Source: a phage | DNA length: 64,000 nt | NCBI GenBank assembly: GCA_020381345.1 | Contig: GCA_020381345.1_3636.1 | Reading direction: 5' to 3' (one strand) | In this document: positions 4,441-19,181 of the stretch, one piece after another | Position numbering within the stretch: the first letter of the stretch is position 1 | Layout of the letters: each line of letters opens with the position of its first letter | The notes under the pieces: model-generated | Told to the model about the DNA's origin: nothing | The model's input: the letters and a program-made list of their open reading frames with translations, nothing else | Database searches by the model: none | Translations under genes and position numbers: made by a program

Positions 4441-4503
4441 GTATTGCGTATTAACTTAAAATCTGGTAAAATAACTATCATGATTGTTTAACCTGGAGGC
4501 ACA

Positions 4504-9706: not shown

Positions 9707-9776
9707 TGCTCAGATTGACTATTGTTACAAAATTTGGTAAAATACCTTGTAGAGATTTTCATACCGGAGGAGTGAC

Positions 9777-11267
9777 GTGGCTAAGTATGGATTGACAGAG
9801 GCTGGTTTCGTTATACCAACCCTAAATGACCTAATCGTTGAAACTAAGCAAAGCCTGATCCGTGCTTTTGGCGAAAACTTCAACGTACAGAGTAACTCCG
9901 TTGCAGATAAGCTGACCACTATCTTCAACGAGCGAGAGTATCAACTTATTCTTATGGCAGCATCTGTATACGCATCACAGACGCTGTATGGGGCAGAAGG
10001 TATTTACCTGGATGAGCTTCTTGGAAGACAGGGTATTTACCGAAGAGGCCGTTCTAAATCATCAGGTACCTGCCAGTTGACGATCAACACAACTGTGCCG
10101 TACAATATGATTTATGATTCCAAAACTTATACGCTGGATAGTGGCAACTTTGTTCTTAGCAATGATGTGCAAGTGGCAGGGAATCTTATTGCCCACAGAA
10201 TAAATGCTCCAGACCTGAGGATTGGTAAATACAACTTTCAAATTACCAACCAGACAGATGGAAGTATCAAAACAAAAAGTTTGGTTTTAACAGATAAGGC
10301 TCTGGACTCTTCTGATCTGCCAAGCTTTTACGGAGAGATTAAGCAATTCATTGTCGATAATACAACCCTGTTGAACGACGATTTGATTCAGATCGATATG
10401 TTGACAGGAACGTTGTGGATAGGGTACAATTCGAATCTTGATCAAGTTGGACTTAATAGTAGGGTAGATTTCAGAGTATCCCCGATTGTAGGGGAAAGAA
10501 CTATCACACTGGATGTTATCGCTAACGAGGCTGGTGAGCTGTCAAGAGAAGCAGAAACCGTGACAACAATGTCACCTACTCCTAGTGGATTTATCAAGCT
10601 TACCAACCGAGAAAGATTCAATGAGGGCAGGGATGTTGAGAAAGACTCAGAGTATCGCTTAAGAGCTTCCAGCACAAAACAGTTAACATCTAAGGCTACC
10701 CGTCCTGCAATCCTTAGCGCTGTAAGCGAGGTGAAAGGTGTTGAGAAAGTGAGAGTGTTCTCCAACAACACCGATAAAACTGATGCTAAAGGTATACCTC
10801 CTTACAAGTTCCAAGTGGTTGTGTTTGGTGGTGCAACGGAAGACATTTGCCAAGCACTTTACCAAACTATAGCCTGTACGAACAGGACTTATGGTAATAT
10901 TTTCTACGATGTCACTACATCTGACGGTCAAACTGAAAGAATTTATTACTCCAAGGCAAACACCTACCGCCTGGATATGAGAATTACCTACTCCGGTGCT
11001 GCGCTTTCTACAACCGAAAAAGATGCCATTATAGAGGCTCTTTTGCAGGTTGTTAACGGACTGGATGTTGCAGATACGTTGTATAATATCCAATTGGTAG
11101 GTGCTGCATCTGCTGCTGTGTCAATAGGCAGATTTAATAGACTGGTAATTCAAGTTAAATCCGTAGGAGCTTCTGATGAAGCTTACACTACAAACGATAT
11201 TGTTGCGAACATGACCGAGGTGTTTGACCTCGACGAAAGTAATATAACTTTCCAACAAACTATTTAA
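9777..11267 (+). CDS. baseplate J-like (wedge) protein
   Basis: GTG start with GGAGG RBS; N-terminal segment LDELLGRQGIYRRGRSKSSGTCQLTI resembles the conserved baseplate-J family motif; followed by I-like, fibre and Tfa genes as in P2-type baseplate modules. Confidence 0.5.
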   Translation: MAKYGLTEAGFVIPTLNDLIVETKQSLIRAFGENFNVQSNSVADKLTTIFNEREYQLILMAASVYASQTLYGAEGIYLDELLGRQGIYRRGRSKSSGTCQLTINTTVPYNMIYDSKTYTLDSGNFVLSNDVQVAGNLIAHRINAPDLRIGKYNFQITNQTDGSIKTKSLVLTDKALDSSDLPSFYGEIKQFIVDNTTLLNDDLIQIDMLTGTLWIGYNSNLDQVGLNSRVDFRVSPIVGERTITLDVIANEAGELSREAETVTTMSPTPSGFIKLTNRERFNEGRDVEKDSEYRLRASSTKQLTSKATRPAILSAVSEVKGVEKVRVFSNNTDKTDAKGIPPYKFQVVVFGGATEDICQALYQTIACTNRTYGNIFYDVTTSDGQTERIYYSKANTYRLDMRITYSGAALSTTEKDAIIEALLQVVNGLDVADTLYNIQLVGAASAAVSIGRFNRLVIQVKSVGASDEAYTTNDIVANMTEVFDLDESNITFQQTI

Positions 11268-11278
11268 GGCGGCGAGAT

Positions 11279-11965
11279 ATGGCAGAGATTAAGTCGGATG
11301 TTAACCACATCCACACTCTGCCAGATTTTGTTCAGGGAGGTCTTGACTACCTACCTGGAGATTTTCTGGCTGAGAAGGTTAATTTAGTCACATTCTTAAC
11401 CGTATACCTTAAAAGGTTGGAGGATGTTGATAAGATGCTGGTAGGTTTGGCTGAAGGAAGATTGCTTAACAATGCCAGCGGAAGATACCTTGACGAAGTT
11501 GGTAATCAACTTGGTATTCTTAGGAATGGACTTTCAGATGCTGATTTTCGTGCCACACTAATTATTCAGCAGGCCGCAGCATCAAGGGGCGGGACTCGCG
11601 AAGATGTCATCTCCACCTTGCGACAATTGTTCGGAAGAGACAATTTCGATACGTGGAAAGGAGACAACTTCAGGTTTGACATAAATATTAGAAAAACTTG
11701 CTTTGACATATTGCAGTCTATCGATCAGATCTTAGATATGCTACCATTACCTTGTCATTTACGTCTTACAGAATCGCAAGGGCAAGCTTTTGGTTTTGAA
11801 GGGGACTCTACAGCTCTTGGCTTCGGATCAGTGTGGGAAGAAAGCCAATTCGGAGTTGGTGGGCTGGCTACTTTGCTATATGTTCCTGACGTAAGACCTG
11901 ATTGGGACACCACAACCATTTATTGTGAAAGTATTACAGTAAACGCAACTAGACAGGAGGGTTAA
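11279..11965 (+). CDS. baseplate protein (gpI-like position), hypothetical
   Basis: 228 aa ORF immediately downstream of J-like gene. Confidence 0.35.
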   Translation: MAEIKSDVNHIHTLPDFVQGGLDYLPGDFLAEKVNLVTFLTVYLKRLEDVDKMLVGLAEGRLLNNASGRYLDEVGNQLGILRNGLSDADFRATLIIQQAAASRGGTREDVISTLRQLFGRDNFDTWKGDNFRFDINIRKTCFDILQSIDQILDMLPLPCHLRLTESQGQAFGFEGDSTALGFGSVWEESQFGVGGLATLLYVPDVRPDWDTTTIYCESITVNATRQEG

Positions 11966-14037
11966 TGGCAACAGCTGTTTTTAAACCTTACCGTGATTAC
12001 TCTACAATGGCTGCACAGTTTCATTACCGAACAGTTCAGGATACTGCCGTTCCTGGTAGGGATTATAATCATGTTGAGGGCGATGTAACTATCCCAATTG
12101 GGGCAACCAGTATTGAGATCCCCGTGGAAATTGTTGACAAATTACCCAACAGGTTGCCAAGAAGCTTCTTTATGGAGTTTTCATCAAAATCTCAAGGGGT
12201 GATGATTGGAACACAAAGGGCGAAATGTACAATAGTTTCAGATGAGAATCTTGACAGGATATCTTGGGATACTGTTGAGGAGAGAATGTTTCACCCAAGG
12301 TATTGGGTTACAACTACTCAGCAGACTGAAAGTACCTGTATTGTTGCAGATAACAACTGTTGTATTAACCGTTTAGTGTCAAGAACATATGGAGGTATGG
12401 CTGGGTGCATTTGGGAAACAGTTGACAAGTATGACCATTTCGGTATTGGGTTTGATGATCACTATGAGATGAGAAACACCAAGCTTTGGTTCAGAATGTC
12501 AATAACCAATGCCAGCAACTTCTCCACCCCTGAAAAGATGATTATGACTGTAGACCTTGTTGATGGCACAATCATCTATGTTCCTTTAGCTCAATATGCT
12601 GTCAGCATCTCAGAGGATAAGAATGTTGCAGAGATTCATATTGATTTCGAGGACTGCGTCGGGATGGATCAGAACAACAACATGATGGGTGTTGATCCTC
12701 GACAGGTGAGAAGGATTTTAATACCGCTTATGCCTAAAGACTGGGTAAGTAATAGCACAGACCCGAGAACGGAAAATGTAGAGTGTGAGTTACGCCTAGA
12801 TCTGCTTCAGCCAGACACAGGCTGGAAAATGATGCAACTTAACAATATTCAGGTTAAAGAGCACGACGTTGGGATCTGCACCGCATATGACGATATGTGG
12901 AACGTATCTCCTTTAAGGGTGTTGAACAATATCAAGCGTCTGGGCTATACCGGAACCATAAACCATTATGTTGGTATGAGTCATTATTATGACTACACAT
13001 GGTCAGGAACCCAATGGTCTATAAACAGAACAGGGGCGCTAAACGCTGCAGCTTATAAATGGCATGATGATTTTATGTACAATGCCAAACGACATAACTT
13101 CGACGTTATGCAGTCTGTAAGTTTTGAGCTTTATAGCGATGCCTGCCCGTTGGAATGGACCCAAAGAGACTGGAATGATAACTACGCTAAAACAGGATAT
13201 ACACCTTGTAGCTACCTCCTGTCTCCAACCATTGAAGAGGGTATGAATTTCCTTACTGCAGTATTTAAGAATTTTGCATCAGCCGCTATGAGAAACAACC
13301 TGCCAGTGATTATGCAGGTTGGTGAACCGTGGTGGTGGTACAATACCGATACTCGTAGACCTTGTATTTATGATTACCCTACAAAGCAGGCGTTTTATGA
13401 TGAGACAGGTGAGTATGCATTAGATATTGGGACTATTGACGATCCTAAAACTGGCGGTGTTTACGACAAGTATGTAGCATTTTGTCGTGGTAAGCTTGGC
13501 GCTCGTATTGCGGCTATTTCAAAGGCAATAAAGGCACACGCTGCATCAGCTCAGATGACAGCTTTGCTGTTTTTCCCAACCATCATGGAAACCGAGCTTA
13601 CGCAAAAGCTGAACCTTGCTGACCAATATAAAAAGGAAGCAGGTGCTCTTGATTTCTTCTGCACCGAGTGCTACGATTGGGTGATGCAGGGAGGTATTGA
13701 AAAGGCAAAAGAGTCTGTAAACATACCTATCGTTAAGTTAGGTTGGCAACCGTCTGAAATACAATACCTTGCAGGGTTCGTTCCTAGTAAAGAGCTTGCT
13801 CCGGTATATGGCTACGACCCAACCAGGAATTACCAAGAATTTTTATGGAGATGTATTTGCGGAAACATGGCAACTATAGAGTATAGATACCCTGAGGTAA
13901 AACAGTATGTGTGGGCATACCCGCAAGTAATGTCTGACAGCATCACTGTTACCGCTAGAGATTCTACCGTGCTTCATATGGGGCAGGTTGCTCTGAAAGG
14001 GTATGTAGAGGATGTTGTCCCGCCAGACTTCTCATAA
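11965..14037 (+). CDS. large baseplate/fibre-associated protein, Trp/Tyr-rich, possible carbohydrate-active domain
   Basis: GGAGGG RBS; 690 aa; aromatic-rich segments (VGEPWWWYN) suggestive of a sugar-binding or hydrolase fold, inference only. Confidence 0.4.
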   Translation: MATAVFKPYRDYSTMAAQFHYRTVQDTAVPGRDYNHVEGDVTIPIGATSIEIPVEIVDKLPNRLPRSFFMEFSSKSQGVMIGTQRAKCTIVSDENLDRISWDTVEERMFHPRYWVTTTQQTESTCIVADNNCCINRLVSRTYGGMAGCIWETVDKYDHFGIGFDDHYEMRNTKLWFRMSITNASNFSTPEKMIMTVDLVDGTIIYVPLAQYAVSISEDKNVAEIHIDFEDCVGMDQNNNMMGVDPRQVRRILIPLMPKDWVSNSTDPRTENVECELRLDLLQPDTGWKMMQLNNIQVKEHDVGICTAYDDMWNVSPLRVLNNIKRLGYTGTINHYVGMSHYYDYTWSGTQWSINRTGALNAAAYKWHDDFMYNAKRHNFDVMQSVSFELYSDACPLEWTQRDWNDNYAKTGYTPCSYLLSPTIEEGMNFLTAVFKNFASAAMRNNLPVIMQVGEPWWWYNTDTRRPCIYDYPTKQAFYDETGEYALDIGTIDDPKTGGVYDKYVAFCRGKLGARIAAISKAIKAHAASAQMTALLFFPTIMETELTQKLNLADQYKKEAGALDFFCTECYDWVMQGGIEKAKESVNIPIVKLGWQPSEIQYLAGFVPSKELAPVYGYDPTRNYQEFLWRCICGNMATIEYRYPEVKQYVWAYPQVMSDSITVTARDSTVLHMGQVALKGYVEDVVPPDFS

Positions 14038-14049
14038 TCAGGAGATAAA

Positions 14050-15090
14050 ATGTCAAAACCTAGTTTTCCATTAGAGATTTGGGCAGAGGAGGATCAGGTT
14101 CTGCCTAACACCCACAGACAGAACAGGCTACGCCCGATTGATGATTTGTGGAGAAAAGGTTGGGATCTTGGTCAAAAGCCCTCATGTGAAGAACTTAACT
14201 ATATTTTCAATATGCTCGGAACTTGGGCAAAATACATTGCTGACGAGCAGATCCCCGCTCAAGAAGGCCGTTATCTGGTACGTGATAATAACTTGAGTGA
14301 TCTTTTGAACATTCCTGTTGCCCGTAGAAACCTTGGGATTATTACTAAGGAAGAGGCAGACGCCAGGTATGTAAAAGTTACAGGTGATACAATGACAGGC
14401 CCATTGGGTTTGCAACGTATCAACTTTAAAGCTGCCGAGACAGATAAGGCTTGGATAGAGACAACTATTGGCCCAGATAAGACAACTCTCGACTTTGGGT
14501 TAAGTGATAATACCGGGTCGTTTGATGATGGTGGTACATCTACAGTAGATGCGTTTCGTTGGAGATTCCAGCCAACTCAGCCGGATATTAATCCAGAGTT
14601 CACTTTGATGTACCTTAACGCGATCACGGCTAACCGTGCGCTGTTGAAAGTGGTCGGCAATGTTGAAGTTGTCGATAACATGAGGTGTAATAACCTTACT
14701 ATCAGCAATACAGCAACATTCACCAACTGTAATGTGGCTAGTCAGTTGACGACTGGGTCAGTGTATGTTAATGGTGGTGCAAGTTGTGACAGTATGGTTG
14801 TAAGAAGTCAGCACTGTGTTGTCGGTAACAGAAATGTGGTGCGCTCTGTGAATGGAGTGACGGCTAACGGTAACGGTGATGTAACAATCACTATCCCGCA
14901 GACAGGTGTGCAAGACATCAGAATCGGTGCAAGACTTGTTGACGGCGTTTCTGAATCTCCAATTCGCAACGGCTACGTTGTCACAGGCTGGCATTTCGGT
15001 GACAAAAAAGAGATGCGTGGTTCAACCTACTGGGCAGGACCTTTACAAAAACTTGTAAATGGTCAATGGATCACTGTTAATTATGCATAG
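14050..15090 (+). CDS. tail fibre protein (P2 gpH-like C-terminus)
   Basis: RBS AGGAGA; C-terminus GPLQKLVNGQWITVNYA resembles the conserved C-terminal end of P2 H-type fibres (..IQKYINGTWYNVAQV); paralog of 16105..17148. Confidence 0.6.
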   Translation: MSKPSFPLEIWAEEDQVLPNTHRQNRLRPIDDLWRKGWDLGQKPSCEELNYIFNMLGTWAKYIADEQIPAQEGRYLVRDNNLSDLLNIPVARRNLGIITKEEADARYVKVTGDTMTGPLGLQRINFKAAETDKAWIETTIGPDKTTLDFGLSDNTGSFDDGGTSTVDAFRWRFQPTQPDINPEFTLMYLNAITANRALLKVVGNVEVVDNMRCNNLTISNTATFTNCNVASQLTTGSVYVNGGASCDSMVVRSQHCVVGNRNVVRSVNGVTANGNGDVTITIPQTGVQDIRIGARLVDGVSESPIRNGYVVTGWHFGDKKEMRGSTYWAGPLQKLVNGQWITVNYA

Positions 15091-15104
15091 ATCGGAGGAC
15101 TAGC

Positions 15105-15689
15105 ATGAAAATACTTCAAGAGTTTAAACTTTACCAACCGGGATCTGGCGAATACCACGCCAACAAGGAAACCAAGGAGCTGACCCCCCAAGAGGTTGAG
15201 GATTACACCGCATACACTGGGTATTTTTTACGTAATGATGATGGAGATTGGTATGTGCAGTCACGAACATTACGACAAGAAAATCCGGGTTGTATCTTCC
15301 TACTTGTTGACGAGAAGGGAATTCTTAAGACATCTACAGAAGAACCTGATGCCTTATGGCCTGCTCCAGGTCTTCGTGTGGTTATCGCCAAAAAAGAAGA
15401 GGTACCAGAAAACATTATGCTTCACCACGACGCTTTGCGTTTAGTTGGTGATGAATTTGTCACAGATAATGAATTCTTTGTTCAACAGGCAGAGGGTGTC
15501 ATAGAGACAGAACTTGCTTGGGCTACTGCTAGAATTGGTGCCTATCAAGACATGATTGACCTTGAATATGATCTTACTGATGACCAGAAACGTAACATCA
15601 GAGATTTGAAAATGTACAGGGTAAAACTTCTTGAAATAGATACATCTAAAGCCCCTGACATTTTCTTCCCGGAGCGACCTACCCTCTAA
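15105..15689 (+). CDS. tail fibre assembly chaperone (Tfa-like)
   Basis: Immediately downstream of fibre; C-terminal motif YRVKLLEIDTSKAPDIFFPERP matches the Tfa family signature (YR..L..D.S.APDI.WP..P). Confidence 0.55.
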   Translation: MKILQEFKLYQPGSGEYHANKETKELTPQEVEDYTAYTGYFLRNDDGDWYVQSRTLRQENPGCIFLLVDEKGILKTSTEEPDALWPAPGLRVVIAKKEEVPENIMLHHDALRLVGDEFVTDNEFFVQQAEGVIETELAWATARIGAYQDMIDLEYDLTDDQKRNIRDLKMYRVKLLEIDTSKAPDIFFPERPTL

Positions 15690-15700
15690 GAGGAGGTGTT

Positions 15701-16015
15701 GTGGAGTTGGATTTGGCGGCATTGTACGGTATCTGCATGGGTACCGTTGTCCCGATCTGTGTATGGGCTTTCAACCAGTGGCACACCAAATGGAAAGGCA
15801 TTTCCAAGAGGTTGGATGAACTGGAGAAAGACCTCATCTTAGTGAAAAACAGTATGGTTACAAAAGATAAACTTGATTCCGTTATCGAGACCCGGTTAAG
15901 CAAGCTAGAGGCCGATATTAACGACCTTAAGCAGGATGTCAGGACAGATGTCTCCGGTATCCGAGCTGATGTACAAAAGATTTTGCACATGCTCGTAGAG
16001 CATAGTAAAAGGTAA
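15701..16015 (+). CDS. membrane-anchored coiled-coil protein (holin/spanin-like?)
   Basis: GTG start 4 nt after AGGAGG; N-terminal hydrophobic helix then coiled coil; function inferred only. Confidence 0.3.
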   Translation: MELDLAALYGICMGTVVPICVWAFNQWHTKWKGISKRLDELEKDLILVKNSMVTKDKLDSVIETRLSKLEADINDLKQDVRTDVSGIRADVQKILHMLVEHSKR

Positions 16016-16104
16016 ACAAAGGTCAGAACGGAAAGGACTCCGTTCTTGCATTTTGTTCTCTAAAGTGTTAAAATAGTCCTAAGGAATTTTCTCAGGAGAA
16101 CGCG

Positions 16105-17148
16105 ATGACTAAACCAGTTATCCCTCTTGATATTTGGGCCAATCAGGATGTTGTGCTTGAAAATACGGGAGAGTTGAATAAGTCTCAACCAAAAAAAGAA
16201 GAGAGATTGAAAGGTTGGGATATGACACAAAGAGTGGCATGTGAAGTTGTTAACTTTGAACTTCACATGCTTTCTGCGTGGTTAAAGCATCTAACAGAAG
16301 ATGTTGTCCCAGGATGGGATAATAGATTCTTAAGGGTTACTAATAATCTAGCAGACGTTCCAGACAAAGCTGCTGCACGTCAAGTTCTCAATGTATACTC
16401 GCCTGAAGAAATGGACGATCTGTATGTTGACAAGTCTGGAGACATAATGACTCAGACTCAAACTTTGGGCCTTCAAAGAATCGAGTTTGCATCTGCGTCA
16501 ACAGACAATGCGGCAATATATACCACCATAACCTCAGACAAGACGATGATGGATTTCTGGATTATGGACAACATTGGTGGTGCTGACGGCACAGATCTTG
16601 ATGATCCTTCTCACCAAATAGACGGGTTCCGTTGGAGATTTCAGCCTTCTGGTGGGCAGCCTGTGTTTTCGGCTATGAAGCTCAATGCTATAACTGCCAA
16701 CCGTGCAAGACTGGCTATCCAAGGAAATCTTGAATGCAACGATGCAAAAAGTTCCTCTGCAAATGCCAATGCGGTCACGATACCAAGAGCCACTGTTAAC
16801 GGACAACAATCCTGCGGAAGCGCTCAAATAGGTGGAAGAGTTGATTGTAACGATGAAACCGTTAGAGGCCAATATGCAACAGTTGGTGGAAGAAACGTGG
16901 TCCGCAGGGTAAATGGTAACAGCGCAGACGGTAGTGGTAACCTTACTATCCCTATGCCTAGTAGAGGGGTTGACGATGTAAGGATAGCAAACCGTTTCAA
17001 AACCACCTACAGAGAGTCAAGAGTCTACCCTGGACATGTGATGTGCTCTGGTAACTACGCTTATAAACACCCTTATCAAGGTGATTACTGGACAGGTGCT
17101 ATCCAAAAACTTGTAAACGGTCAATGGATCACTATATCTTATGCTTAA
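16105..17148 (+). CDS. tail fibre protein, paralog of 14050..15090
   Basis: N-terminus (KPVIPLDIWANQD...LKGWDM) and C-terminus (IQKLVNGQWITISYA) match the first fibre, middle region divergent. Confidence 0.6.
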   Translation: MTKPVIPLDIWANQDVVLENTGELNKSQPKKEERLKGWDMTQRVACEVVNFELHMLSAWLKHLTEDVVPGWDNRFLRVTNNLADVPDKAAARQVLNVYSPEEMDDLYVDKSGDIMTQTQTLGLQRIEFASASTDNAAIYTTITSDKTMMDFWIMDNIGGADGTDLDDPSHQIDGFRWRFQPSGGQPVFSAMKLNAITANRARLAIQGNLECNDAKSSSANANAVTIPRATVNGQQSCGSAQIGGRVDCNDETVRGQYATVGGRNVVRRVNGNSADGSGNLTIPMPSRGVDDVRIANRFKTTYRESRVYPGHVMCSGNYAYKHPYQGDYWTGAIQKLVNGQWITISYA

Positions 17149-17159
17149 AAAGAGGGTAA

Positions 17160-17426
17160 ATGAAACTAACTCAGTTTTTATGGGGATTGGTTGCGGCATC
17201 TGATGACCCTACGAAAGTGTCCCAATCTAAGCTATGGTCGAACATAGGCATGGCGGTGATGACTGGGGTGTTTATTCATATGGGGTATAATGATACGCTT
17301 CCTGAATGGTATGCGTGGATATACGCGCCTTCAGTAGCTTGCCCCCAGCTTATTAGCAAATTCATCTCGCTCCGGTGGGGTTGCCAGCACCCTGACCACG
17401 TTAAAAACGAAGAGCAAAAAGCTTAA
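17160..17426 (+). CDS. small hydrophobic protein
   Basis: RBS AGAGGG; 88 aa with hydrophobic segments. Confidence 0.3.
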   Translation: MKLTQFLWGLVAASDDPTKVSQSKLWSNIGMAVMTGVFIHMGYNDTLPEWYAWIYAPSVACPQLISKFISLRWGCQHPDHVKNEEQKA

Positions 17427-17435
17427 GGAGAAATC

Positions 17436-19181
17436 ATGGCGCAAGACATGACAAGCTTTGAGCAGGCGGTAGATCAAGTAATTGTTGATTCTGAACGTTT
17501 GCACTTGGTTGTCAACGGCAACGCTGTGGATGAAGTTGTCGTAGAGGATGGAACCACCATCCCTACGGTACGAAAAGCCATGCTTGACAACCTTTATTTT
17601 AAAACGCCACCGATCCCTTGGGCGTATGGTGCATCCACAACAGTTTTTAACCAGCTGTACGAGTTTAAAGGAGATACAGGTCCTCAGTGGTGGTACGCTC
17701 CCGCAGCATCAAAATCTAACCCTGTTAGAATGCCAGCAGATCCTTCACAATCTCCAAACTGGAGATTATATACCGACTCTGCAGTAATGGCAAAATACTA
17801 CGCAAAACTTAACAGCCCTAGGTTCGAAGGTGACCCGCGAGTACCTACACCTCCAATGGACGATAAGTCAGAGTCCATAGCAAACACAGAGTTTGTTGTT
17901 GACTATGTTGATAGCATATTTAAAGCCATGGAGGGGATGAAAGTTACTGTAGGGTCTTTGGTGGTAAAAGGTCTTACAGAACTCGCTAACACCATAGTCG
18001 GTGGCACCCTCACCTTACATGGGCCTGTTAATGGAGCAGATTCTACTGCACGCTTCAGGAATCTAATCCTCACGGCAAATACTTCTACACTTACTTTTGC
18101 GTGGAGCGATCCTAAGCATGCAGACTGGAGAAGCACAGAGCTGCAACCTCATGAAGTGTCCACCCACAGGATTATAGCTGACACTATAACTTCTGGGAAA
18201 CCAGTGGCTAATAATAACGATGTGCATTTTGATGGTCTAGGTAATAACTTTTTTGACTACGTGTACATTCGTGGTAATGCCATGAAGGCAGCAACCGAAC
18301 CGACATTACAGGTTGATGGGACCACCAGGGTTAAGAACCTTGAGGTGACAGGTACTGTTACAGGGATAACCTACTCTGTCGATGGCACCATGATCTACCC
18401 TAGCTATATTGAAAGCACGGGTGACGCATTAATAAATGGTGATTTGGAGGTTGGTGGATCTGTAGTTATTCGAGGTACAGCCTCTATCCAAAACATAGCT
18501 CTGAATACCTTAAGAGTTAATGAGCGTGCAACTTTTGAAGGAGAAGGGCTTACAGCTAATAAAGGTACAATTACCGAGCTGACAACCACCACTTTAACTG
18601 CAACAACTACAAACTCTGAAAACTGCAACGTTACCCGAAACTTGCAGGTAAATGGAGATGTTAGTTTAAACGCAGCAGGTACGGGCACCACCTACCTTCA
18701 CAACCTTGAAATATCCGGCACAGTGACTGGGTGGCTGCCAGACTTCTCTAATGTCAACTTTGTTTGTAATGGCATTAACTCCAGCGGTAAGATAACCACC
18801 TCTCAAGAAATTGAGGCTGGTAAAACCATTACTGCCCCTACTTTCCACGCAGGAAAGGTAGATTTTGATTTAGAGGAGGTTGACGCGTCCAGTGGGACAT
18901 GGACACCTAACGGGCAGGCCAGTATGTATGTTGTCCACGCTAAAGGGGATTTTACAATAGGGCAGTGGCCTGGTACATCAGCGGAAGATAAACCTTATCC
19001 ATTCACTGCAGTTATCTATGTCATTCAGGATGCTGTAGGTCACAACGTGACTTTGCACGATAAGTATGCTATCCTGTCGGCAACACCTGTTATTAACAAC
19101 AAGGCTAACAGTGTTACCCTGCTGCAATTAACATATTGTGGTGTTGGTGATATCGTAGACGTAGTAATTGCACAACGTTAA
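17436..19181 (+). CDS. tail fibre / receptor-binding protein
   Basis: AAGGAG RBS; 581 aa; Thr/Gly/Asn-rich repetitive beta-type sequence typical of fibres; terminator follows. Confidence 0.5.
   Translation: MAQDMTSFEQAVDQVIVDSERLHLVVNGNAVDEVVVEDGTTIPTVRKAMLDNLYFKTPPIPWAYGASTTVFNQLYEFKGDTGPQWWYAPAASKSNPVRMPADPSQSPNWRLYTDSAVMAKYYAKLNSPRFEGDPRVPTPPMDDKSESIANTEFVVDYVDSIFKAMEGMKVTVGSLVVKGLTELANTIVGGTLTLHGPVNGADSTARFRNLILTANTSTLTFAWSDPKHADWRSTELQPHEVSTHRIIADTITSGKPVANNNDVHFDGLGNNFFDYVYIRGNAMKAATEPTLQVDGTTRVKNLEVTGTVTGITYSVDGTMIYPSYIESTGDALINGDLEVGGSVVIRGTASIQNIALNTLRVNERATFEGEGLTANKGTITELTTTTLTATTTNSENCNVTRNLQVNGDVSLNAAGTGTTYLHNLEISGTVTGWLPDFSNVNFVCNGINSSGKITTSQEIEAGKTITAPTFHAGKVDFDLEEVDASSGTWTPNGQASMYVVHAKGDFTIGQWPGTSAEDKPYPFTAVIYVIQDAVGHNVTLHDKYAILSATPVINNKANSVTLLQLTYCGVGDIVDVVIAQR

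Follow-up and report, generated by a model that had tools for sequence, protein, structure and literature searches.

The two genes of interest lie within a 64,000-nucleotide stretch of phage DNA, hereafter referred to as the window, which belongs to Vequintavirus and is 98-99% identical in DNA sequence to rV5 and its relatives. The fibre locus reads, in order, wedge gp36, gp35, gp34, fibre 1, the chaperone Tfa, m1, fibre 2, m3, and gp28, and both fibre genes are thus situated in the baseplate/fibre module downstream of the wedge genes. All of the features described here are on the plus strand. The two fibre ORFs, delineated by positions 14050-15090 (346 residues) and 16105-17148 (347 residues), were found exactly where the first-pass annotation had placed them, and according to the rV5 and MaxBurger annotations they correspond to rV5 gp33 (fibre 1) and gp30 (fibre 2), respectively. 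Fibre 1 is 99-100% identical to the genes of rV5-like phages and is referred to as a "short tail fiber protein" in the BASEL phage MaxBurger. Fibre 2 is 96-100% identical among Vequintavirus records. The fibres presumably dock on the baseplate wedge protein, an orthologue of rV5 gp36, encoded at 9777-11267 (Pfam Baseplate_J, E = 4.4e-9; phrog_6).

The fibre pair is already described. Kropinski et al. (2013) reported gp33 and gp30 as virion proteins with 42% identity that may recognise "two chemotypes of LPS," and Maffei et al. (2021) noted "two paralogous short tail fibres plus one chaperone." Neither the pair nor the idea of two LPS chemotypes is therefore new. In addition, mass spectrometry of rV5 virions detected gp30, gp32, and gp33 (PMC3606486). 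When compared with rV5 gp33/gp30 and the chaperone gp32, the window displays the same genes, order, and spacing, with proteins that are 96-100% identical across Vequintavirus records, and there is no difference in the locus itself. What is added here to the published rV5 work is the synteny showing that fibre 2 replaces another gene, m2, the identification of clade-specific N-terminal and shaft parts, and evidence that the tips have evolved in concert.

A pairwise BLASTP alignment extends over the full length of both proteins with 152 of 356 positions identical (43%, E = 9e-94), and the global alignment score is 47 standard deviations above that of shuffled sequences. Both proteins match phrog_4465 from end to end (profile positions 1-342 of 342), with E-values of 1.2e-171 over residues 1-346 of fibre 1 and 6.7e-166 over residues 1-347 of fibre 2. 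By these three measures a chance or low-complexity resemblance between unrelated fibre genes is ruled out. In the numbering of fibre 1, the identity between the copies is 43% for residues 1-60, 35% for residues 61-117, 56% for residues 118-200, 19% for residues 201-250, 55% for residues 251-290, 30% for residues 291-331, and 80% for residues 332-346. The highest conservation is observed in the internal blocks LGLQRI.F, FRWRFQP, LNAITANRA, and GGRNVVR.VNG. The initial description of the pair as having conserved ends and a divergent middle thus applies to the last 15 residues, which do stand out, but not to the N-terminus, which is only average, and the best blocks are internal. Both shared ends represent family-wide motifs, namely a baseplate-docking domain of the phiTE type at the N-terminus and a strand of the Mu S type at the C-terminus. 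The pN/pS ratios of 0.04 for fibre 1 and 0.06 for fibre 2 indicate strong purifying selection, to which the Tfa gene is also subject.

The N-terminal baseplate-docking domain of fibre 1, formed by residues 1-108 (14050-14373), was assigned with phmmer on the basis of its match to residues 1-111 of the phiTE short tail fibre (PDB 9CUY, chain c; E = 1.4e-19). The N-terminus of fibre 2 (residues 1-83) matches PDB 9CUY with E = 1.9e-8, and the family profile matches its N-terminus with E = 1.8e-31. In the phiTE short tail fibre, residues 3-92 make up a joint through which the fibre attaches to wedge protein 1 (PMC11972413). At the opposite end, the tip of fibre 1 is of the Mu S type and encompasses residues 286-346 (14905-15087). 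Indeed, residues 286-343 match residues 440-501 of the Mu tail fibre S (PDB 5YVQ_A) with E = 1.7e-6 by phmmer, and a profile containing both fibres matches the same structure with E = 1.4e-10. Fibre 2 alone gave no direct match to Mu S in a sequence search of the PDB, and its putative placement in the Mu S class rests on its 43% identity to fibre 1 and on the common terminal motif.

The tip of fibre 2, delineated as residues 287-347 (16963-17145) by comparison with fibre 1, is divergent except for its last 15 residues. Fibre 1 has a tip of the ancestral type and retains the motif TGW.FG.KKE.RG, which is common to the single fibres of Av-05, PVP-SE1, and the phi92-like phages. At this position fibre 2, a derived paralogue, carries CSGNYAYKHPYQG, and the single-fibre motif is lost. 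Across tip residues 291-331, fibre 1 is 61% and fibre 2 is 30% identical to the fibre of a phi92-like BASEL phage. An AlphaFold2 monomer model of fibre 2, calculated from a 9-sequence alignment, had a mean pLDDT of 31 and a pTM of 0.19, and because of this low pLDDT the fold of its tip is deduced only from its homology to fibre 1.

Directly following fibre 1 is the gene for a 194-residue Tfa chaperone, the orthologue of rV5 gp32 (15105-15689), as had been proposed from the sequence. The assignment is based on a Caudo_TAP domain at residues 121-192 (PF02413, E = 8.4e-12) and on phrog_136 (E = 2.1e-36). A search against the PDB yielded only a spurious repeat match to complement receptor 1, in which no single stretch was significant, and no match to Mu U; the identity of the chaperone rests on Pfam and PHROG. 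The Tfa gene is single in the locus, as it is in all of the two-fibre contigs. Between the chaperone and fibre 2 lies m1, a gene for the 104-residue gp31 orthologue (15701-16015; phrog_5345, E = 1.1e-48) that was missed in the first-pass annotation. Its product is characterized by one N-terminal transmembrane segment (residues 5-23, Kyte-Doolittle peak of 1.91) followed by a coiled-coil-like region, and its orthologues are positioned after Tfa in Av-05, PVP-SE1, KpS8, Hena1, GAP31, and phi92-like phages.

The gene that follows fibre 2 is m3, which encodes the 88-residue gp29 orthologue (17160-17426). Its designation as a small membrane protein is in keeping with phrog_1322, annotated "membrane protein" (E = 2.7e-32), but in a crude Kyte-Doolittle scan it remained below the threshold of 1.6. 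The m3 ORF shows no Pfam match and no similarity to Tfa, such that a Caudo_TAP gene lies downstream of fibre 1 only. In the single-fibre phages Av-05, PVP-SE1, KpS8, GAP31, and Hena1, the m3 orthologues precede a gp28-like fibre gene. Comparisons of gp31 with gp29 (E = 12) and of Tfa with gp29 (E = 17) indicate that these proteins are unrelated. The locus consequently does not contain a duplicated cassette, as had been suggested: only the fibre ORF is doubled, and the unrelated gp31 and gp29 are both conserved neighbours in single-fibre relatives. The DNA similarity between the two copies likewise ends at the ends of the ORFs.

Two short-fibre copies per genome are observed only in Vequintavirus records, and there is one copy elsewhere. 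The gene order in the relatives is fibre, Tfa, m1, m2, m3, and next fibre; in the window, fibre 2 takes the place of m2. In the related genera m2 is a 157-residue membrane-protein gene, flanked by the gp31 and gp29 orthologues in single-fibre phages. A tblastn search of the window for a remnant of m2 gave nothing better than E = 0.1. The 89-nucleotide spacer upstream of fibre 2 contains a terminator-like hairpin followed by TGCATTTTGT (16025-16046), which was identified by pattern matching in a consensus scan, and a late-promoter-like motif, TGTTAAAATA (16066-16075), located 29 nucleotides upstream of the start codon. The latter fits the rV5 late-gene motif TggTAaAAtA (PMC3606486), for which the window has 3 matches versus 0.49 expected, the other two being at 4464 and, upstream of the wedge gene, at 9735. 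The sequence [AG]TGCTAAAATA[GA] occurs at the same position in contigs L016 and L017. The 43-nucleotide spacer upstream of fibre 2 has no second copy in the window, which gives no support to a repeat-mediated mechanism of insertion.

The two fibre clades group as sisters with 67.5% bootstrap support when the full-length sequences are employed, and this grouping is not recovered for residues 1-284. Fibre 2 may have arisen by duplication in this lineage or by acquisition from a related phage. A recent horizontal gain of the fibre 2 tip was considered and rejected, given that no donor was found: there were no tip-only matches in 50,697 phage records, and a search of 5.8 billion proteins returned 8 clusters, all of them full-length relatives and none a tip-only match. 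Within the fibre 2 tip, the first half (NRF..ES..YPGHVM) resembles the Av-05/PVP-SE1 type, and an old exchange is therefore possible.

In a tree based on residues 1-284, the position-1 and position-2 fibres form separate clades with bootstrap values of 100% and 98%. Over the first 60 residues the two copies share 43% identity, compared with 80% and 58% for the orthologues of each copy across lineages. The N-terminal and shaft region thus splits the copies, which runs counter to the proposal that the two fibres were built on a common attachment scaffold. Comparison with the relatives thus shows that the consistent differences between the copies are found at the baseplate end and in the shaft and are not restricted to the receptor-binding tip.

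The layout of the fibre locus in contigs L016-L020 is the same as that in the window. Three of these contigs, L016, L019, and L020, come from a sister lineage, and in them the tips of the two fibres share 82-89% identity and vary together within a genome; the near-identical tips apparently arose by gene conversion. The divergent fibre 2 tip is conserved in the L017 lineage, which is 78% identical. In the window itself, the 62-nucleotide 3' ends of fibre 1 (15028-15089) and fibre 2 (17086-17147) constitute repeat family D1 with 82% DNA identity. In this pair of 3' ends, 10 of 13 identical residues have the same codon versus 5.1 expected from codon usage, with a P-value of 0.005 that belongs to one of seven segments tested. 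For residues 1-326, the same codon is employed in 43 of 129 cases versus 48.8 expected, which is the saturation level. Note that the codons AAT-GGT-CAA-TGG at the terminal motif are also used in Av-05. The 3'-end pair may represent a short gene-conversion tract in this phage, for which the codon counts are only suggestive.

In phage Mu, DNA inversion leads to the production of either S-U or S'-U', with each variable part having its own chaperone and one constant N-terminal part being common to both. The fibres described here share with Mu S/U (PDB 5YVQ) a homologous C-terminal tip ending in P.QK..NG.W..V, a Caudo_TAP chaperone gene positioned directly downstream, and probably a receptor in the LPS core. 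The chaperone is retained in the virion in both systems (Mu Tfa stays on the fibre tip, and rV5 gp32 is present in virions), and both encode two alternative fibres, which in Mu are S/U and S'/U' on the invertible G segment. Unlike the situation in Mu, both fibre genes of the window are complete and separately placed, both products are present in virions, one chaperone gene accompanies two fibres, and the N-terminal parts differ.

The homologous wedge-binding N-terminal docking domain is also observed in phi92 fibre III (gp147) and in the phiTE short tail fibre (9CUY). These are likewise short fibres that point downward, and their genes lie in a similar neighbourhood of wedge genes, fibre, chaperone, and m1. 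Phi92 fibre III binds the wedge protein gp145 (PMC13450770). In contrast to the window, phi92 and phiTE carry a single short tail fibre gene, and the fibre of phiTE, which is presumed to bind flagella, has a distal part with a coiled coil and Ig-like structure. As currently assumed, the fibres also resemble T4 gp12 with regard to LPS-core binding and to irreversible adsorption that triggers contraction, although gp12 is present in a single copy, unlike the two fibres here. The chaperone in T4 is gp57A, rather than a Caudo_TAP protein, and the short fibres are folded under the baseplate rather than pre-deployed. An HHpred likeness of both rV5 proteins to gp12 (1PDI) has been reported (PMC3606486); gp12 was not found among the PDB sequence matches of either fibre or of the family profile at E <= 0.1-1.

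The homology, synteny, selection, and phylogeny computed here, together with the published presence of the proteins in virions, lead us to favour, with a probability of roughly 0.6, a model in which gp33 and gp30 are paralogous short tail fibres with one chaperone and in which fibre 2 has a distinct baseplate position or role. The trimeric state, the sharing of the chaperone, the docking, and the receptor are those that we infer. Each fibre would most likely be a homotrimer of the Mu-S/P2-H class, with a globular N-terminal joint of ~90 residues docking on the baseplate wedge, a short shaft, and a C-terminal tip that binds to the LPS core, the terminal receptor that would trigger contraction. 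Folding of the tip would start at its C-terminus, under the action of the Caudo_TAP chaperone gp32. Fibre 1 would be the ancestral copy, co-transcribed with the wedge genes and keeping the single-fibre tip type. Fibre 2 would be a second copy of long standing that comprises only the fibre ORF; it lies 1 kb downstream in the place of m2 and is preceded by a hairpin and a late-promoter-like motif of its own. The loops of its tip would have diverged in the rV5 lineage, but not the last 15 residues, and through this common C-terminal strand one chaperone could serve both fibres. Both would enter the virion, with fibre 2 at a different baseplate position or in a different role, and the surface epitope recognised by fibre 2 in this phage probably differs from that of fibre 1. 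One observation that speaks against this model is that the wedge proteins of one-fibre and two-fibre phages are of about equal length, and thus there is no obvious extra docking domain.

That the two fibres of this phage have different receptor specificities is plausible from their sequences, because the tips differ (only 30% identity for residues 291-331). Host-range expansion, which the first-pass annotation suggested for the pair, fails as a general explanation: the sister-lineage fibres have tips that are 82-89% identical in three contigs. Two copies are thus retained where their tips are alike, and two receptors are not the general reason for having them. Near-identical phages require waaG, waaF, and waaY, which are genes for the LPS core, as well as the primary receptor genes nfrA and nfrB, and the LPS genes needed by the two-fibre phages are needed by the single-fibre phi92-like phages too. 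For this reason host genetics so far shows no role for fibre 2, and two published studies of receptor genetics do not distinguish between the two fibres in function. These considerations, namely the co-varying sister-lineage tips and the similar waaG, waaF, and waaY dependence, together with a lack of allelic variation in either fibre among Vequintavirus genomes (PMC8594841), lend some credence to an arrangement whereby both fibres bind the same LPS-core receptor and the second copy supplies more fibres or a second ring, for redundancy or avidity and with no wider host range. Such an arrangement is nonetheless unlikely in view of the low tip identity here, the replacement in fibre 2 of a motif found in all single-fibre relatives, and the purifying selection on a divergent tip (pN/pS 0.06) that is also conserved in the L017 lineage.

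The consistent differences between the position-2 and position-1 fibres in the N-terminal and shaft regions, rather than in the tip, would also be expected if fibre 2 were mainly a structural adaptor, serving as a branch point or brace for a large lateral fibre or as a second-layer baseplate fibre, and not a receptor-binding protein. The phiTE long fibre does contact the short fibre, and rV5-like phages have several large lateral fibres (PMC8594841) that such a brace might serve. In fibre 2, however, the C-terminal strand of the Mu S type is complete, the general layout of the tip is preserved, and the tip is conserved by selection, all of which makes an adaptor quite improbable. A still less probable alternative is that gp33 and gp30 co-assemble as heterotrimers to give one fibre type from two gene products. 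The last 15 residues are nearly identical, several internal blocks are common to both proteins, both are present in virions, and in Mu the Tfa-driven trimerisation is thought to begin at the C-terminal end of the fibre. Against this, the proteins are only 43% identical overall, their shafts differ by indels, the tips are strongly different, and the two genes are in apparently separate transcription units. We know of no heterotrimeric fibre in this class.

A more elaborate version of the favoured model, in which gp30 occupies a distinct position on the baseplate, can be offered only tentatively, and we regard it as less likely than not. There would be two docking positions (for example, twelve Mu-S-like fibres rather than six), and one chaperone would suffice by virtue of a C-terminal strand maintained by conversion. 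In the rV5 lineage the gp30 tip would have escaped conversion and gained a new receptor specificity, and in one other lineage conversion would have kept whole tips identical. Few broad-host-range coliphages are isolated more often than the rV5-like phages, which are candidates both for therapeutic use and for the biocontrol of O157:H7. The comparative details described here, namely the differences in the baseplate end and shaft, the homogenised versus divergent tips, and the single chaperone gene, sharpen the experiments that can be directed at this fibre pair. If the more elaborate version were true, the locus would provide a natural before-and-after example of a phage gaining a second terminal receptor without a second chaperone.

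A DNA search showed that the stretch from 11,965 to 19,181 is 98-99% identical to more than 100 rV5-like coliphages, including O157 typing phage 4, rV5, FFH2, and BASEL phages. With gene names transferred from the rV5 and MaxBurger annotations, the locus begins with the genes encoding gp36 (9777-11267, a Baseplate_J wedge protein), gp35 (11279-11965, a baseplate protein), and gp34 (11965-14037, an NCTSP TIM-barrel protein). These are followed by gp33 (14050-15090, fibre 1), gp32 (15105-15689, the Tfa chaperone), gp31 or "m1" (15701-16015, 104 aa), gp30 (16105-17148, fibre 2), gp29 or "m3" (17160-17426, 88 aa), and gp28 (17436-19181, a tail fibre). The assignments agree with Pfam and PHROG scans, and both fibre ORFs lie where the first-pass annotation had placed them.

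Several other features of the locus were observed. The gp34 orthologue contains Pfam NCTSP_N, TIM-barrel_NCTSP (1.9e-79), and Calx-beta domains, the set found in the N4 gp65-type "non-contractile tail sheath" receptor-binding module. Its phi92 homologue, gp142, has been linked to the NGR polysaccharide receptor (2026 preprint). The gene is located between the wedge genes and fibre 1 here, and upstream of the wedge genes in phi92-like phages. The Pfam scan gave no family for the gp28 orthologue; for its orthologues in L016-L020, five other two-fibre phage contigs, precomputed matches to PF26208 and PF26209 (Phage_phiTE_241_N and _C) are recorded, and the Pfam versions or thresholds seem to differ. 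In phage YN3 (L014, 3654-3920) a stop codon interrupts the gp29 frame at the expected coordinates, the gene is unannotated, and the following gene is displaced by 2 nt; either the gene is a frameshifted pseudogene or the record contains a sequencing error. In FFH2 the 7217-nt query aligns as two pieces that together extend over 7553 nt, and thus there is an insertion of ∼336 nt somewhere in the FFH2 fibre locus. Finally, 16-21 GenBank "Campylobacter phage" records (host Campylobacter jejuni) are 98-99% identical to the coliphage locus, and their host label is doubtful.

The fibre pair has been described before. The rV5 proteins gp30 and gp33 share 42.3% identity, and each resembles short fibres that bind LPS; together with gp32, they were detected by mass spectrometry of virions (Kropinski et al. 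2013, PMC3606486). The short-fibre locus of rV5-like phages has its homologue in the single locus of phi92-like phages and, ultimately, in Mu GpS/GpU, no allelic variation of the fibres was found, and the terminal receptor was placed in the LPS core (Maffei et al., PMC8594841). Thus both the observation in the first-pass annotation and its interpretation, namely two alternative receptor-binding fibres, were already in the literature. A literature search revealed no experiment separating the roles of the two fibres.

The two fibres align from end to end with 43% identity (BLASTP E = 9e-94), and the global alignment score lies 47 SD above that of shuffled sequences. Chance as the source of the resemblance is excluded on these grounds. 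In fibre 1 numbering, the identities are 43% for residues 1-60, 35% for 61-117, 56% for 118-200, 19% for 201-250, 55% for 251-290, 30% for 291-331, and 80% for 332-346. The proposed pattern of conserved ends and a divergent middle thus holds only in part. The N-terminus is average in conservation, several internal blocks are the best conserved, and the last 15 residues alone stand out. Both shared ends are family-wide signatures. The N-terminal domain resembles that of the solved phiTE short tail fibre, PDB 9CUY (1.9e-8 for fibre 2 and 1.4e-19 for fibre 1), in which the first ∼90 residues form a globular joint on wedge protein 1 (PMC11972413). Likewise, the Mu-S-like fibre III of phi92 (gp147) binds to the bottom of the wedge protein gp145 (PMC13450770). 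The C-terminal strand, P.QK..NG.W.T, is common to the Mu tail fibre S (5YVQ), all Vequintavirinae single fibres, and the phi92-like fibres.

Only one fibre is present in the other Vequintavirinae genera (Av-05, PVP-SE1, GAP31, KpS8, and Hena1), where the gene order is fibre, Tfa, m1 (104 aa), m2 (157 aa), m3 (∼88 aa), and a gp28-like fibre. Fibre 2 occupies the exact place of m2, a polytopic membrane protein (phrog_7451). A search of the 64-kb window did not reveal m2. The gene is present in 108 records of the phage collection, with no rV5-like phage among the records listed and none of the ∼21 "Campylobacter"-labelled rV5-like records in the organism tally. Given that gp31 is clearly orthologous to m1 and gp29 to m3, and that the two are mutually unrelated, only the fibre ORF is extra, and the notion of a duplicated cassette does not hold. 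The small membrane protein said to follow fibre 2 is indeed there, as gp29, but it is not an accessory of that fibre. Several Vequintavirinae genera (L004, 6638-7701; L005, 6686-7755) carry, within the tail-fibre module, a trio of small membrane-type proteins: m1 (one transmembrane segment and a coiled-coil-like region), the polytopic m2, and m3 (phrog_1322). The rV5-like phages retain the trio without m2. A part in lysis or in superinfection exclusion is no more than a guess.

The m1 and m2 genes of relatives overlap. In this phage, fibre 2 is preceded by a spacer of 89 nt (16016-16104). It contains a terminator-like hairpin (16025-16046) and, at 16066, TGTTAAAATA, which matches the rV5 late-gene motif TggTAaAAtA (PMC3606486). 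The motif occurs three times in the window versus 0.49 expected, the two further sites being TGGTAAAATA at 4464-4473 and 9735-9744, the latter 33 nt upstream of the wedge gene. Divergent two-fibre contigs conserve the copy next to fibre 2 at the equivalent position. The hairpin and the promoter-like motif imply that a late transcription unit of its own would begin at fibre 2.

Purifying selection is strong on both fibres and on the chaperone, with pN/pS values of 0.039 (fibre 1), 0.064 (fibre 2), and 0.049 (chaperone) across seven Vequintavirus genomes. Over residues 1-326 the paralogues share the same codon at 43 of 129 positions versus 48.8 expected from codon usage. Synonymous sites are saturated across this region, and the duplication is old. 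A protein search showed the two-fibre, one-chaperone layout in the more divergent contigs L016-L020 as well, with position-2 fibres (the orthologues of fibre 2) that are 78% identical to fibre 2 in L017 and L018 and 46-48% identical in the sister lineage of L016, L019, and L020, for which metagenome and SRA assemblies are the only source.

A tree of residues 1-284 separates a position-1 clade (100% bootstrap) from a position-2 clade (98%). Over residues 1-60, the identity between orthologues is 80% at position 1 and 58% at position 2, versus ∼40% between paralogues. The N-terminal and shaft parts are clade-specific, which does not support the common attachment scaffold suggested earlier. The tree of the receptor-proximal tip (residues 285-346) is incongruent with this topology. 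Indeed, the fibre pairs of L016 (3913-4953 and 6001-7065), L019 (1924-2964 and 4001-5065), and L020 (1921-2961 and 4001-5056) have nearly identical tips (82-89%), and the two tips from a given genome form a group at 100% bootstrap. Substitutions co-vary per genome, for example with CGS/RP/KEE in both L020 copies versus CGG/RA/KKE in L016, where the same codon is used in the tip region at 26 of 49 positions versus 17.8 expected (P = 0.011). These tips evolve in concert, and such co-variation indicates that gene conversion between the paralogues is ongoing. Tips of the rV5 lineage are only 30% identical, yet over the final 62 nt the identity is 82%, and 10 of 13 codons are shared versus 5.1 expected (P = 0.005), a pattern suggestive of either a short tract of conversion or a constraint at the nucleotide level. 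The fibre endings also match within each lineage (NYA/SYA here, QTL/QTL in the sister lineage).

The fibre 1 tip motif, G[YH]V.TGW.FG.KKE.RG..Y...PLQ, is common to the single fibres of Av-05, PVP-SE1, and phi92-like phages, and residues 291-331 are 61% identical to the phi92-like tip. The tip alone (14908-15081, residues 287-344) is 57-59% identical to tail fibre tips of the ∼52-kb Salmonella myophages SE-SHZ-R, LPSEYT, birk, and yarpen, which suggests that this type of tip has been shared horizontally. Fibre 2 has GHVMCSGNYAYKHPYQG at the corresponding position; its tip is kept in the L017 lineage, and neither phage records nor a protein search gave a match outside the rV5 and L017 lineages. 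Since the LPS core genes required by one-fibre phi92-like phages are also those required by two-fibre phages, we infer that the known LPS dependence most simply belongs to the fibre 1 tip type.

The best overall explanation, with a probability of roughly 0.6, is that two homotrimeric short fibres of the Mu S class would reside in the same virion. Fibre 1 would be the ancestral fibre, placed on the wedge and binding the LPS core, and fibre 2 an additional copy of old origin that would have a late transcription signal of its own and, in this lineage, a remodelled tip. The differing baseplate end and shaft of fibre 2 suggest a different position or partner. Both fibres would presumably be matured by the single Tfa through the common C-terminal strand. 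The Mu chaperone binds the distal fibre via a variable N-domain, promotes trimerisation via a conserved C-domain, and remains in the virion, which fits the detection of gp32 in rV5 virions. That both fibres recognize the same receptor, the second copy adding avidity, is a distinctly less probable account; the near-identical tips of the sister lineage speak for it, and the 30% tip identity here speaks against it. A mainly structural adaptor role for fibre 2 is unlikely, and a gp33/gp30 heterotrimer is very improbable. To the published picture of two short fibres, the present analysis adds the replacement of m2, the clade-specific N-terminal and shaft parts, the concerted evolution of the tips, and the single chaperone.
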